Source: Escherichia coli
GTDB taxonomy: Bacteria; Pseudomonadota; Gammaproteobacteria; Enterobacterales; Enterobacteriaceae
Strand: one strand, 5' to 3'
DNA length: 19,380 nucleotides
NCBI RefSeq assembly: GCF_003334355.1
Contig: NZ_QOWP01000048.1
Below the pieces are notes generated by a model, which was given only the letters and a program-made list of their open reading frames with translations, searched no databases and was not told the origin of the DNA. Shown piece after piece: positions 6,181 through 11,478 of the stretch. The position numbers and the translations under genes are program-made. Positions within the stretch are counted from its first letter, which is position 1. Every line of letters begins with the position of its first letter.

Positions 6181-7359
6181 ATGCCTTCGCCCTCGCATCC
6201 CGTAGAACGCTTTTCTTTCAGCACCGCGCTTTTCGGGATGCTGGTTCTGACCTTAGGTATGGGTTTAGGCCGCTTCCTTTATACGCCTATGTTGCCCGTC
6301 ATGATGGCGGAAGGATCGTTTTCATTTAGCCAGCTCTCGTGGATTGCCAGCGGCAACTATGCGGGGTATCTGGCTGGCAGTCTGCTATTTTCGTTTGGCG
6401 CATTTCACCAGCCATCGCGCCTGCGCCCATTTCTGTTGGCTTCTGCCCTGGCGAGCGGGTTGTTGATCCTCGCAATGGCATGGTTGCTGCCATTTATTCT
6501 GGTGTTATTGATTCGCGTCCTGGCGGGTGTCGCCAGCGCCGGTATGCTGATTTTTGGTTCGACGCTGATTATGCAGCACACGCGCCATCCTTTTGTGCTG
6601 GCAGCTTTGTTTTCTGGCGTTGGCATTGGCATCGCACTGGGCAATGAATATGTTCTGGCAGGCCTGCATTTTGACCTCTCCTCGCAAACGTTATGGCAAG
6701 GCGCCGGGGCGCTTTCTGGCATGATGCTGATTGCACTTACGCTTTTAATGCCCTCGAAAAAACACGCCATCACACCAATGCCATTGGCAAAAACGGAGCA
6801 ACAGATAATGAGCTGGTGGTTACTGGCTATTCTGTACGGCCTGGCGGGATTTGGTTATATCATCGTCGCGACTTACCTGCCGCTCATGGCGAAAGATGCA
6901 GGCTCACCATTGTTAACCGCCCATCTCTGGACGTTAGTCGGCTTATCAATTGTGCCTGGTTGCTTTGGCTGGCTATGGGCAGCAAAACGTTGGTGGGCTT
7001 TGCCCTGCCTGACGGCGAATTTGCTGGTGCAGGCTATCTGTGTGCTGCTTACTCTCGCCAGCGACTCGCCTCTCTTGCTTATCATCAGCAGTCTTGGTTT
7101 TGGCGGTACCTTTATGGGCACGACATCTCTGGTGATGACTATCGCCCGCCAACTGAGCGTACCGGGAAATCTCAATCTTTTAGGCTTTGTGACGCTCATT
7201 TACGGCATTGGACAAATCCTCGGCCCGGCGCTGACCAGTATGCTCGGCAATGGAACATCGGCGCTTGCCGGCGCCACTCTCTGCGGCGCGGCGGCGTTGT
7301 TTATTGCTGCGCTTATCAGCACAGTACAATTATTTAAGCTGCAAGTGGTCACTTCATGA
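6181..7359 (+). CDS. yjiJ: MFS-like inner membrane transporter YjiJ (392 aa)
   Basis: 392-aa ORF, highly hydrophobic with many predicted helices. AAGG at 6171-6174 upstream of ATG 6181. Recognised as YjiJ. Confidence 0.85.
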
Positions 7360-7371
7360 GGAGTGTTTCCC

Positions 7372-7926
7372 TTACCACTCAAGAAATTCGACCGCAACCG
7401 TTGATGTCAGCCAGACCCCGTTTTCCGCTTGCCAGAAAGGGAGGCCTCGTTTCGCCATTTCCTGTGCTTTGACGGTTAAAATAACCGGCGATCCGTGTCT
7501 TGCTCCCACTTTGCGTGCCGTTGCTTCATCAGCAGAGAGATGTACGTAGTGACGCTCACCTGCAATCAGCCCCTGTTTTTTTATCTCGTCAAGGAAACGG
7601 CTTGCCGTACCGTGGTAGAGAAACTGTGGCGGTGTTTTTTCGGCAAAGGAAATAGCGACCTGCGAAGTCGAATGCCCCTGAACCGCGCGGATGCACCTAC
7701 CATCACTGGAATAACTAAAACGCTTTTTATCGCTGGTGGCAACCACGGTATCCAGCAATGCACGGGTTAACCGCTTGCCCGCTTTTTGGGCACAAAGTAT
7801 GAGCTTATCGATATCCGCCCATCCTTCACGGTCCAGTACGATACCAATCGCCTCCGGTTTGTGTCGGAGGACAAAACTTAAAAACTTGCTCGTATCCGCC
7901 AGCTCTTTTTCGTTGTACTTTGCCAT
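7372..7926 (-). CDS. kptA: RNA 2'-phosphotransferase KptA (Tpt1 family), 184 aa
   Basis: 184-aa ORF on the minus strand with Tpt1-like segments ([23 protein letters not shown]). AGGGA lies about 10 nt upstream of the ATG on the minus strand. Confidence 0.9.
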
Positions 7927-8175
7927 CGCGTTTTCGTCCCTGGATTATCTGTTTTTTATTTACTATGTCATTGTCACTGGGTTTATGAATTTTCTGCAAC
8001 TCAATCCTGCGTAGAACCTTTTCCACACAGCGTAATTTTACCGCTATGCAAAAAACGCATAGTCAGAAACATACTTGCATTTTCCCCATACCCACATGGC
8101 TGATAAGGTTTTTCAGCTCCAGGAATTTTCCTGGCTCAAGCAACACACAAACACAAAAAAACAATGGGGATTGTT

Positions 8176-8859
8176 ATGACACAACAAGGGGATGCTGTAG
8201 CCGGGGAGCTGGCGACAGAAAAAGTGGGCATTAAAGGGTATCTGGCTTTTTTTCTCACCATAATCTTTTTTTCCGGTGTTTTTTCCGGGACAGACAGTTG
8301 GTGGCGCGTTTTTGATTTTTCCGTTCTGAACGGATCGTTTGGGCAACTGCCTGGTGCGAACGGAGCCACCACCTCGTTTCGCGGCGCGGGTGGCGCGGGG
8401 GCTAAAGATGGCTTTCTCTTTGCGCTGGAGCTGGCACCGTCAGTCATTCTCTCTCTGGGGATTATTTCAATTACCGATGGTCTTGGCGGATTACGCGCCG
8501 CGCAGCAGTTAATGACGCCAGTGCTAAAACCGTTGTTGGGCATTCCAGGGATCTGCTCGCTGGCGCTGATCGCTAACCTGCAAAACACCGATGCCGCCGC
8601 AGGTATGACCAAAGAGCTGGCGCAGGAAGGTGAAATTACCGAACGCGATAAAGTGATTTTCGCCGCATATCAAACCAGCGGTAGCGCCATTATCACCAAC
8701 TACTTCTCTTCCGGCGTCGCGGTGTTTGCCTTTCTGGGCACGTCCGTAATCGTACCTTTAGCAGTCATCCTGGTGTTTAAATTTGTCGGAGCCAACATTT
8801 TGCGCGTCTGGCTTAACTTCGAAGAACGTCGCAACCCAACGCAAGGAGCGCAAGCATGA
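8176..8859 (+). CDS. yjiH: Inner membrane protein YjiH (nucleoside-recognition/Gate-domain, SpmA-like), 227 aa
   Basis: Second in-frame ATG (8176) is preceded by GGGGA; ATG 8164 has no SD. Hydrophobic membrane protein. Confidence 0.85.
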   Translation: MTQQGDAVAGELATEKVGIKGYLAFFLTIIFFSGVFSGTDSWWRVFDFSVLNGSFGQLPGANGATTSFRGAGGAGAKDGFLFALELAPSVILSLGIISITDGLGGLRAAQQLMTPVLKPLLGIPGICSLALIANLQNTDAAAGMTKELAQEGEITERDKVIFAAYQTSGSAIITNYFSSGVAVFAFLGTSVIVPLAVILVFKFVGANILRVWLNFEERRNPTQGAQA

Positions 8860-9317
8860 CAACTCAGGTCCGCAAAAACATCATGGATATGTTTATCGAT
8901 GGTGCGCGCCGTGGCTTTACTATCGCCACGACCAACCTGCTGCCAAACGTGGTGATGGCGTTTGTCATCATTCAGGCGCTGAAAATTACCGGCCTGCTCG
9001 ACTGGGTGGGGCATATCTGTGAACCCGTAATGGCGCTGTGGGGATTACCCGGTGAAGCGGCAACCGTCCTTTTAGCCGCATTAATGAGTATGGGTGGCGC
9101 AGTCGGTGTTGCCGCCAGTCTGGCAACCGCTGGCGCATTAACCGGTCACGATGTCACCGTTTTACTGCCCGCGATGTATTTAATGGGCAACCCGGTGCAA
9201 AATGTCGGTCGCTGCCTGGGGACAGCCGAAGTGAATGCCAAATATTACCCGCATATCATTACGGTCTGCGTGATTAACGCATTGCTGTCGATCTGGGTTA
9301 TGCAGCTTATTGTTTAA
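8856..9317 (+). CDS. yjiG: Inner membrane protein YjiG (nucleoside-recognition-domain, SpmB-like), 153 aa
   Basis: ATG overlaps the yjiH stop (ATGA at 8856-8859), implying translational coupling. Hydrophobic, glycine-rich helices. Confidence 0.85.
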   Translation: MTTQVRKNIMDMFIDGARRGFTIATTNLLPNVVMAFVIIQALKITGLLDWVGHICEPVMALWGLPGEAATVLLAALMSMGGAVGVAASLATAGALTGHDVTVLLPAMYLMGNPVQNVGRCLGTAEVNAKYYPHIITVCVINALLSIWVMQLIV

Positions 9318-9329
9318 CAAGGAGTTACC

Positions 9330-10502
9330 ATGATTGATTATACCGCAGCCGGTTTTACCCTGCTGCAGGGAGCGCATTTGTATGCGCCGGAAGATCGGGG
9401 AATTTGCGATGTCCTCGTCGCTAACGGCAAAATTATCGCCGTTGCCAGTAATATCCCTTCTGACATTGTACCGGACTGCACGGTTGTCGATCTCAGCGGG
9501 CAGATCCTCTGCCCAGGTTTTATTGATCAACACGTCCATTTGATTGGCGGTGGCGGCGAAGCAGGTCCCACGACGCGCACGCCGGAAGTGGCGTTAAGTC
9601 GTCTGACGGAAGCAGGCGTCACGTCAGTGGTTGGTCTGCTGGGCACCGACTCTATCTCTCGCCACCCGGAATCCCTGCTCGCCAAGACCCGTGCGCTCAA
9701 TGAAGAAGGCATCAGCGCCTGGATGCTGACCGGCGCTTATCATGTCCCTTCCCGCACTATTACGGGTTCCGTGGAAAAAGACGTGGCGATTATCGATCGC
9801 GTGATTGGCGTGAAATGCGCCATCTCTGATCACCGTTCTGCCGCACCGGACGTTTATCACCTGGCTAATATGGCGGCGGAATCCCGCGTTGGCGGTTTGC
9901 TCGGCGGTAAACCTGGCGTCACCGTGTTCCACATGGGCGACAGCAAAAAGGCGTTACAGCCTGTCTATGACCTGCTGGAAAACTGCGATGTGCCGATTAG
10001 CAAGTTGCTGCCGACCCACGTTAACCGCAACGTTCCGTTGTTTGAGCAGGCGCTGGAGTTCGCGCGCAAAGGCGGCACCATCGATATCACCAGCAGCATT
10101 GACGAACCAGTCGCCCCTGCCGAAGGTATTGCCCGCGCCGTTCAGGCGGGTATTCCGCTGGCACGCGTCACCCTCAGCTCCGACGGCAACGGTAGCCAGC
10201 CGTTCTTCGATGACGAAGGGAATTTAACCCATATCGGTGTTGCCGGTTTTGAAACGTTGCTGGAAACCGTGCAGGTGCTGGTCAAAGATTATGATTTCAG
10301 TATCAGCGATGCCCTGCGCCCGCTCACCAGTAGCGTAGCCGGTTTCCTTAACCTGAGCGGGAAAGGCGAAATTCTGCCAGGCAATGACGCAGACTTACTG
10401 GTCATGACGCCAGAATTACGCATTGAGCAGGTATACGCTCGCGGCAAGCTGATGGTCAAAGACGGCAAAGCCTGCGTGAAAGGAACGTTTGAAACGGCAT
10501 AA
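9330..10502 (+). CDS. iadA: Isoaspartyl dipeptidase IadA (amidohydrolase superfamily), 390 aa
   Basis: AAGGAG 6 nt upstream of ATG 9330. Metal-binding HxH motif in FIDQHVHLIGGGGE. Recognised as IadA. Confidence 0.9.
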   Translation: MIDYTAAGFTLLQGAHLYAPEDRGICDVLVANGKIIAVASNIPSDIVPDCTVVDLSGQILCPGFIDQHVHLIGGGGEAGPTTRTPEVALSRLTEAGVTSVVGLLGTDSISRHPESLLAKTRALNEEGISAWMLTGAYHVPSRTITGSVEKDVAIIDRVIGVKCAISDHRSAAPDVYHLANMAAESRVGGLLGGKPGVTVFHMGDSKKALQPVYDLLENCDVPISKLLPTHVNRNVPLFEQALEFARKGGTIDITSSIDEPVAPAEGIARAVQAGIPLARVTLSSDGNGSQPFFDDEGNLTHIGVAGFETLLETVQVLVKDYDFSISDALRPLTSSVAGFLNLSGKGEILPGNDADLLVMTPELRIEQVYARGKLMVKDGKACVKGTFETA

Positions 10503-10507
10503 ACGGT

Positions 10508-10554
10508 TGTCAGCCGCCCGAATGGACGTAGAATGCCCGCAAGGGCGGCTGACA
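10508..10554. promoter_or_regulatory. Perfect 12-bp inverted repeat (TGTCAGCCGCCC ... GGGCGGCTGACA) with 23-nt loop in the iadA-hypT spacer; possible terminator or processing/regulatory structure
   Basis: Read directly: arms at 10508-10519 and 10543-10554 are exact reverse complements. Begins 6 nt after the iadA stop and ends 13 nt before the hypT ATG. No U-tract follows. Confidence 0.5.
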
Positions 10555-10566
10555 GAGTAAAACGTA

Positions 10567-11478
10567 ATGGATGACTGTGGTGCGGTTTTGCATAATATTG
10601 AAACTAAATGGCTTTATGATTTTCTGACCCTGGAAAAATGCCGCAATTTTTCCCAGGCAGCAGTCAGTCGCAACGTCTCGCAACCGGCATTCAGCCGCCG
10701 CATCCGTGCGCTGGAACAGGCGATTGGCGTTGAATTGTTTAACCGCCAGGTGACGCCGCTGCAACTCTCGGAACAAGGTAAAATATTCCATTCGCAGATC
10801 CGCCATCTGTTGCAACAGTTAGAGAGCAACCTTGCAGAACTCCGTGGTGGCAGCGATTACGCGCAACGCAAAATTAAAATAGCCGCTGCACACTCTCTTT
10901 CCCTCGGGCTGTTACCGTCCATTATCAGCCAGATGCCGCCGCTCTTTACCTGGGCAATTGAAGCTATTGATGTCGATGAAGCGGTCGATAAACTGCGTGA
11001 AGGGCAAAGTGACTGTATTTTTTCCTTTCACGACGAAGATTTGCTGGAAGCGCCGTTTGACCACATTCGCTTATTTGAATCTCAATTGTTCCCCGTTTGC
11101 GCCAGTGACGAACACGGAGAAGCACTTTTTAACCTCGCGCAGCCACACTTTCCGTTACTGAATTACAGCCGCAACTCCTACATGGGGCGATTGATTAATC
11201 GCACCCTGACGCGCCACAGTGAGTTAAGTTTCAGCACCTTTTTTGTCTCTTCGATGAGCGAGCTTTTAAAGCAGGTTGCCCTCGACGGCTGTGGGATTGC
11301 CTGGCTACCGGAATACGCCATCCAACAAGAAATTCGCAGCGGGCAGCTCGTTGTACTGAATCGGGACGAACTGGTGATCCCGATTCAGGCCTATGCATAC
11401 CGGATGAATACCCGCATGAATCCAGTTGCCGAACGCTTCTGGCGTGAACTGCGCGAGCTGGAGATTGTGCTTAGCTGA
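10567..11478 (+). CDS. hypT: LysR-family hypochlorite-responsive transcriptional regulator HypT (YjiE), 303 aa
   Basis: N-terminal LysR helix-turn-helix ([39 protein letters not shown]). 303-aa ORF recognised as HypT. Confidence 0.9.

Follow-up and report, generated by a model that had tools for sequence, protein, structure and literature searches.

Comparative analysis argues that the inverted repeat CTATGC-N7-GCATAG, located between the divergent genes kptA and yjiH of Escherichia coli, is very probably a genuine protein-binding operator, and that its binder is probably a transcription regulator of the HypT family. The original prediction had proposed the repeat as a candidate operator of the yjiHG-iadA operon. 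This proposal is supported by the conservation of the repeat among genomes, by its recurrence at other promoters, and by the fixed layout of which it forms part. The same prediction had left the regulator unknown. HypT is the probable candidate, given that the layout recurs beside HypT-family genes and that hypT itself follows iadA.

The inverted repeat in its genomic context

The window (the whole stretch of 19,380 nucleotides analyzed here) is an E. coli chromosomal segment with the gene order mdtM-yjiN-yjiM-yjiL-ytiA-yjiK-yjiJ, kptA (minus strand), yjiH-yjiG-iadA-hypT (plus strand), iraD, and the uxu genes (Table 1). The gene context first described for the repeat was right: kptA and yjiH diverge from a shared spacer of 249 bp (positions 7927 to 8175). 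hypT is the fourth gene downstream of the site on the same strand; it starts 64 bp past the end of iadA, lies 2.5 kb downstream, and is not divergent from its proposed target. The best sigma-70-like promoter of the spacer lies on the minus strand at positions 7944 to 7971 (ATGACA-16-GATAAT, scoring 10/12), faces kptA, and is likely the kptA promoter, independent of the dyad. In one sequenced strain, E. coli O157:H7 6535WT, the annotation makes kptA a frameshifted pseudogene, and the operator is intact. The annotated hypT of this strain has 855 bp versus 912 bp in K-12, with about 19 codons missing from the 5′ end, so that the DNA-binding domain of its product may be incomplete at the start.

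Table 1 Positions of the proposed operator, the yjiH promoter and leader, and the flanking genes in the window
Feature	Positions	Strand	Basis or remark
kptA	7372-7926	-	Annotation
Inverted repeat: CTATGC (8044-8049), AAAAAAC (8050-8056), GCATAG (8057-8062)	8044-8062	.	Sequence
13-nt linker and third half-site TGCATTT (8076-8082; GCAT at 8077-8080)	8063-8082	+	Spacing fixed
Extended -10, TG-a-TAAGGT	8101-8109	+	Inferred core promoter of yjiHG-iadA
Transcription start, A8115 or G8116	8115-8116	+	Inferred; 6 to 7 nt past the -10
Stem-loop CCAGGAA-TT-TTCCTGG	8119-8134	+	About +4 to +19 of the inferred mRNA
CA-rich unstructured leader	8143-8164	+	Tract kept in orthologues
SD GGGGA	8166-8170	+	Followed by the yjiH ATG at 8176
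yjiH	8176-8859	+	Annotation; Gate-domain membrane protein (Pfam)
yjiG	8856-9317	+	Annotation; Gate-domain membrane protein (Pfam)
iadA	9330-10502	+	Annotation; isoaspartyl dipeptidase
yjiH-yjiG-iadA	8176-10502	+	Proposed target operon
hypT (yjiE/qseD)	10567-11478	+	Annotation; LysR-type regulator (PF00126 + PF03466); proposed operator binder

The repeat itself was confirmed in its coordinates, its letters, and its perfect 6-bp arms. In the source strain the arms stop at 6 bp, where G8043 stands opposite T8063; a C at position 8063 extends them to 7 bp (GCTATGC/GCATAGC) in MG1655, O157:H7, and three further E. coli strains that were sampled. Judged from this single sequence alone, the repeat is not significant: the spacer contains four perfect 6-bp-arm inverted repeats (gaps of 0 to 15) versus 1.37 ± 1.5 expected from 1,000 dinucleotide shuffles of the spacer, and 9.4% of the shuffles reach four. 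TATGC-N7-GCATA with two or fewer mismatches occurs 8 times in the window versus 10.4 times in shuffles, and a search for further copies of the dyad in the window at this tolerance, for example at the hypT promoter, returned only chance-level matches. The repeat is considered non-random because it is conserved among genomes and recurs in other promoters.

Conservation of the site upstream of yjiH

The spacer was found in 5,390 of 5,426 complete E. coli genomes. Positions 8041 to 8112 are at least 95% identical in 5,380 of 5,383 E. coli genomes, whereas the kptA-side part (7927 to 8040) is only 90 to 95% identical in 2,841 of 5,352; the dyad is invariant among the sampled strains. Outside E. coli, a YjiH scan using one genome per species yielded 68 loci, 16 of which are true orthologues (L002 to L017, from Escherichia species, the Citrobacter amalonaticus group, Salmonella arizonae/diarizonae, Pluralibacter, Entomohabitans, and Hafnia). 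ATGC-N7-GCAT followed by TGCATTT was present in all 16 orthologous loci and also in S. enterica and Serratia. Conservation in orthologous spacers had been named at the outset as a check on the repeat, and the core upstream of yjiH proved invariant across seven genera (Escherichia, Citrobacter, Salmonella, Pluralibacter, Entomohabitans, Hafnia, and Serratia).

The alignment of the orthologous upstream regions begins exactly at the repeat; the DNA beyond it is unrelated, and the neighboring genes vary (kptA, yjiJ, and others). Within the site, the 7-nt spacer drifts (AAGAAAC, ATGAAAC, AGGAAAC, and, in flipped form, GTTTTTT in Hafnia), and the outer arm bases also vary. The core, comprising ATGC at 8046 to 8049 and GCAT at 8057 to 8060 with its dyad center at 8053, is invariant in 19 to 20 of the 20 sites compared at yjiH and racemase promoters. 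A third GCAT, described below, is present in 20 of 20, and the flanking T's are nearly as constant. In these alignments, a constant core with drifting spacer and flanks is as expected of a protein-bound dyad and unlike neutral sequence.

A fixed promoter layout links the repeat to a putative extended -10 element

The repeat is the left part of a fixed layout of about 65 bp that comprises the dyad, a third GCAT half-site, and an extended -10 element. Its order is ATGC-N7-GCAT, 15 nt, TGCATTT, 18 nt, and TGnTA (TGaTAAGGT in the window), with the third GCAT exactly 20 bp downstream of the right-arm GCAT. A usable -35 hexamer is absent 16 to 18 bp upstream of TAAGGT, where the sequence reads TTTCCC, and a generic sigma-70 scan passed over this promoter because the -35 is lacking. 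TTGCAT was considered as the -35 of TAAGGT and rejected because the 23-nt gap is too long; we therefore took TGCATTT to be a regulator half-site over the -35 position and the extended -10 to be the core promoter. Counted from the inferred -10, the dyad center would lie at about -63, TGCATTT at about -40 to -34, and the third GCAT at -39 to -36. A sigma-54 promoter, with its GG-N10-GC spacing of the -24/-12 elements, was rejected as well: TTGCAT at 8075 to 8080 has no GG 12 nt upstream (8065 to 8066 is AG), and the (A)GCACG...TTGC spacing of relatives exceeds the required one by 4 nt.

In published start-site data, no experimental start was found for the proximal yjiH promoter. ROSE reported an in vitro E-sigma70 start at MG1655 position 4,561,366 (about 7490 in the window), listed as "yjiH, potentially repressed by Fis." This start maps inside the 3′ part of kptA, antisense to that gene and 686 bp ahead of the yjiH start codon, and so is not the proximal yjiH promoter. 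In a table derived from RegulonDB, yjiHG-iadA has no transcription factor entry, and the operon is in the Crl/sigma-S set (PMC6469107); an RpoD-holoenzyme SELEX table gives a site between iadA and yjiG without promoter hexamers (PMC3946193). The missing entry and the SELEX site without hexamers are weakly consistent with an activator-dependent yjiHG-iadA promoter. E. coli 88-3493 carries, at window positions 8086 to 8105, a 20-bp tandem duplication of ATACCCACATGGCTGATAAG that doubles most of the -10 region and puts one copy 20 bp (two helical turns) farther from the operator.

Downstream of the inferred start, a hairpin occupies the same leader position in 12 of 12 sequences folded (the window and 11 orthologues; z of -1.5 to -4.9), and its stems differ in sequence (CAGGCC/GGCCTG, TGGGTT/GACCCA, GGCGG/CCGCC, and GCGGC/GCCGC). 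Structures were folded sequence by sequence; RNAalifold gave none, MAFFT having misaligned the hairpins. These observations suggest a 5′-terminal mRNA stem-loop, possibly with a role in stability. The CA-rich tract noted with the original prediction (ACACACAAACACAAAAAAACAA in the window) does stand just before the SD, but "next to" the repeat was a loose description, as the two are 80 bp apart. This part of the leader consists of A and C only, with ARN-like repeats, and is conserved in the form CAACAAAC-ACACATCATCAAAAAAAT in orthologues; it may serve to enhance translation or as a target of Hfq/sRNA.

The same layout recurs at aspartate racemase promoters

The composite site was also detected upstream of Asp/Glu-racemase genes that stand beside a HypT-family gene, facing the racemase in every such promoter examined. 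At least nine genera have the aspartate-racemase(-dcuA) operon next to a HypT-family LysR gene. Salmonella enterica and Serratia fonticola carry an Asp/Glu-racemase gene downstream of hypT and convergent with it; Edwardsiella tarda has no yjiHG-iadA and carries hypT with a convergent racemase-dcuA operon. Eight contexts are divergent (Providencia, Citrobacter, an E. coli island, E. albertii, Mannheimia, Pectobacterium, Limnobaculum, and Mesocricetibacter); in these the regulator is a HypT-family protein (54 to 61% identity), and the site lies in the shared intergenic region.

The racemase composites have the same 13-nt linker as yjiH in surroundings that are otherwise unrelated. In most of the yjiH and racemase promoters, TGnTA follows at 24 to 26 nt from the start of TGCATTT; exceptions are Edwardsiella site 1 and the hypT-proximal Mannheimia site, where it is weak or absent. 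Mannheimia haemolytica (L078, 5951 to 5992) and E. tarda (L073, 9181 to 9351) have two composite sites each. In Mannheimia, the second of these directly adjoins the regulator's start codon, which suggests autoregulation.

Exact matches to the 13 bases of the composite numbered 27 versus approximately 0.02 expected in the 1.16 Mb of strands scanned, and all 27 fell within yjiH or racemase promoters. A 42-column weight matrix was built only from eight racemase sites. With this matrix, the yjiH site (8044 to 8085) scored 26.3 bits, the top value on both strands of the window; held-out racemase promoters scored 27 to 41 bits, and evidently random matches reached about 18 bits. The second-best match in the window (11927 to 11968; 19.3 bits; TGATGCTCATTTTCCATAG...TTCATT) falls where idlP, encoding the leader peptide of iraD, begins; this match faces away from iraD and scores only just above the random background.

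The composite site co-occurs with hypT

All 14 loci having hypT after iadA carry the composite site, as opposed to 0 of 52 YjiH-homologue loci without hypT (paralogous yjiHG-iadA clusters included), but these counts come mostly from one orthologous lineage and are not independent events, so that independent support is given by the racemase promoters. In Mixta, counted among the 52, the -10 block is kept, and the dyad and hypT are both absent. The paralogous yjiH-yjiG(-iadA) clusters (L018 to L040, L056, and L069), found in Citrobacter, Enterobacter, Kluyvera, Superficieibacter, and Chimaeribacter, share 67 to 76% YjiH identity. They are without hypT, and their upstream DNA is wholly different; they must therefore be regulated differently.

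E. albertii NBRC 107761 departs from this arrangement: hypT is gone after iadA and is replaced by unrelated DNA (L004, 5336 to 6244), the hairpin that follows iadA is kept, and the yjiH operator is 100% intact. Elsewhere in the species, a HypT paralogue of 58% identity is divergent from racemase-dcuA and has a composite site of its own (L087). Given its presence in the species, this paralogue may plausibly cross-regulate the yjiH operator of NBRC 107761. [quoted passage not shown]

The 64-bp gap between iadA and hypT contains a hairpin (10507 to 10555) with a 13-bp stem, TTGTCAGCCGCCC...GGGCGGCTGACAG, a folding energy of -30.8 kcal/mol, and no T-run. It is kept in Citrobacter, Pluralibacter, Salmonella, and E. 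albertii, and an equally long stem is formed from different sequences in Hafnia and Serratia. The hairpin may set the level of hypT relative to the operon, acting as an intercistronic attenuator or through RNA stability.

Alternative explanations for the repeat

We considered whether the site could instead be the operator of another regulator encoded elsewhere, for example one responsive to aspartate or nitrogen, with the proximity of hypT being coincidental. Such a reading would accommodate the position of hypT in the window, not divergent from yjiH but 2.5 kb downstream on the same strand and behind a strong hairpin; the retention of the site without an adjacent hypT in E. albertii NBRC 107761; and the published HypT footprints, which look different from ATGC-N7-GCAT. 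However, the sole regulator gene that accompanies the motif, across 10 or more genera, two target operons, and mobile islands, is a HypT-family LysR gene, and the eight classical divergent arrangements put the site in the intergenic region between regulator and racemase. We know of no E. coli factor with this motif. The NsrR motif is ATGC-N9-GCAT, and those of OxyR, MntR, PurR, NtrC, MarA, and IscR likewise misfit in spacing or orientation. We regard a regulator encoded elsewhere as unlikely.

It is less probable still that the site also, or instead, serves kptA through bidirectional control of the divergent pair. The site does lie in the shared spacer, and the sigma-70-like kptA promoter (7971 to 7944, minus strand) is about 80 to 100 bp from the dyad. 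Yet the site stays with yjiH where kptA is not the neighbor, as in Escherichia sp. MOD1-EC7003, E. albertii, E. whittamii, Citrobacter, Salmonella, Hafnia, and Serratia (loci L003, L004, and L014 among others). The composite is also directional, its half-site and -10 facing yjiH, and the kptA side of the spacer is the less conserved one. Because the site persists without kptA as neighbor, the link of the repeat to kptA is, on this comparison, incidental.

A chance palindrome with no dedicated binder, in a promoter conserved for other reasons, would be in keeping with the roughly 1.4 repeats with 6-bp arms expected per spacer in a single sequence. This explanation is highly improbable, given that the core is invariant despite changing spacer and flanks (the Hafnia flip included) and that the dyad recurs in otherwise unrelated racemase promoters, where a composite found 27 times was hardly expected once in the DNA scanned. 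We give equally little credence to a nucleic-acid hairpin acting as a terminator or insulator of the upstream gene or as a leader RNA structure: the strand does fold to a 7-bp hairpin (-8 to -10 kcal/mol), and Citrobacter yjiJ ends about 50 nt upstream of the repeat, but the stem is followed by TCAGAAAC with no T-run, a terminator scan of 7850 to 8250 called no terminator-like site, an Rfam 15 scan of 7300 to 8900 at E ≤ 1 gave nothing credible (the sole match was Bacteroides-1 at 21.7 bits versus a gathering score of 43, E = 0.74), the stem stands upstream of the conserved -10, and the 20-bp phase of the third half-site and the fixed distance to the -10 are features of a protein site in DNA.

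A proposed model for HypT-family control of yjiHG-iadA

For these reasons we favor a HypT-family operator. The dyad ATGC-N7-GCAT within 8044 to 8062 would be the high-affinity recognition site (RBS) of a LysR-type regulator, centered at about -63. A weaker activation site (ABS), of which TGCATTT is the conserved half, would lie two helical turns downstream over the missing -35. HypT, or a family paralogue whose DNA-binding domain is the same, would occupy 8044 to 8062 together with approximately 8066 to 8082 as a tetramer. The bound regulator would then control RNA polymerase at the extended -10 (TGaTAAGGT) that drives yjiH-yjiG-iadA, and in other bacteria an operator of the same design would control the aspartate racemase(-DcuA) operon that adjoins a HypT-family gene. 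We consider this full two-site mechanism likely at yjiHG-iadA, leaving the sign of regulation aside. Activation is more likely than repression at the yjiH promoter because the promoter lacks a -35.

Several properties of the locus fit such a model. The established LysR-type pattern combines a T-N11-A dyad, as the strong site near -65, with a second, degenerate site over -35 to -45. The core contains T-N11-A (T8047...A8059). The two-site layout is putative: the third GCAT lies 20 bp past the right arm in 20 of 20 sites, but the positions of about -63 and -40 depend on the inferred start. A cognate LysR gene is encoded at the same locus, 64 bp after iadA in the window and divergently at the racemase promoters in eight contexts. 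To our knowledge, no described LysR-type motif matches the ATGC/GCAT half-site.

The conserved regulon of the family looks like one for uptake and salvage of damaged or unusual aspartate, in the form of β-aspartyl dipeptides and D-aspartate. IadA hydrolyzes β-aspartyl dipeptides, and the spontaneous succinimide damage that yields isoaspartyl residues also yields D-aspartyl residues; this common origin makes the inferred family regulon coherent. We tentatively suggest, as a possibility held with somewhat less than even confidence, that aspartate salvage (YjiH/YjiG with IadA; racemase with a DcuA-type carrier) is the primary regulon of HypT, exerted through the 40-bp operator ATGC-N7-GCAT-N15-TGCATTT. 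In that case, the response of iron and sulfur genes to HOCl would be a secondary or low-affinity effect, or methionine oxidation by HOCl would couple protein damage to salvage.

If the model holds, its consequences reach beyond this promoter. HypT, despite structural and biochemical work, has to date been without a clear DNA motif and has shown only weak, approximately 2-fold effects on its targets; a conserved, high-information operator next to its own gene cluster provides a well-delimited piece of DNA on which binding can be studied. yjiHG-iadA, an operon without a regulator entry, becomes a candidate for the first direct HypT target. Salvage of β-aspartyl dipeptides and of D-aspartate is suggested as the theme of the family, and substrates are suggested for the uncharacterized membrane proteins YjiH and YjiG. 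The D-aspartate module on the SRL island of Shigella gains a likely regulator. The assignment would also tie the "bleach-sensing" HypT to genes that salvage damaged aspartate.

Comparison with known systems

HypT (YjiE, QseD) has been described as a hypochlorite-specific regulator under which methionine and cysteine genes go up and iron-uptake genes go down, with effects in Salmonella that are about 2-fold and seen with HOCl only (PMC6397515). In E. coli, gel shifts were obtained with 6 µM HypT and hypT-promoter DNA (PMC3792123). DNase I footprints of Salmonella HypT at fhuA cover TTACGTTATCATTCA and AACCCTTCCTTTTCA, which are 102 nt apart and were called pseudopalindromic (PMC6397515); neither sequence contains the ATGC-N7-GCAT core. 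The published sites and the one proposed here thus share the protein family and a pseudopalindromic character. They differ in their core and in their targets, which in the published work are iron uptake and methionine and cysteine genes; yjiHG-iadA and the racemase operon are not among the genes tested. Our literature search found no paper linking HypT with yjiH, iadA, or racemase and no yjiHG-iadA expression data in hypT mutants. The element is thus of an ordinary kind, a LysR-type operator, and its assignment to HypT is apparently unreported.

The closest parallel to the racemase operons is the pathogenicity island SRL of Shigella flexneri, in which orf7 (LysR), orf8 (aspartate racemase), and orf9 (DcuA) form a module that was found by experiment to permit D-aspartate metabolism; that study left the orf7 regulator and its site aside (PMC6980539). 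This is the same three-gene module as in the loci L077 and L087, and the published primers match L077 at 18 of 18 bases for orf9 and 15 of 17 for orf8. Like the yjiH locus, the SRL module has the same composite site, here in the intergenic region, but its regulator is a HypT paralogue and its target is racemase-dcuA rather than yjiHG-iadA.

Unlike typical LysR-type loci, the window has its regulator gene, hypT, downstream of the target on the same strand and not divergent from it. In other respects the arrangement is close to that of the LysR-type operators of OxyR, CbnR, BenM/CatM, AtzR, MetR, and CysB. It shares with them an interrupted T-N11-A dyad, a putative second, degenerate site about two helical turns downstream over a poor -35, and a regulator gene of the same cluster, which is divergent in most members of the HypT family.
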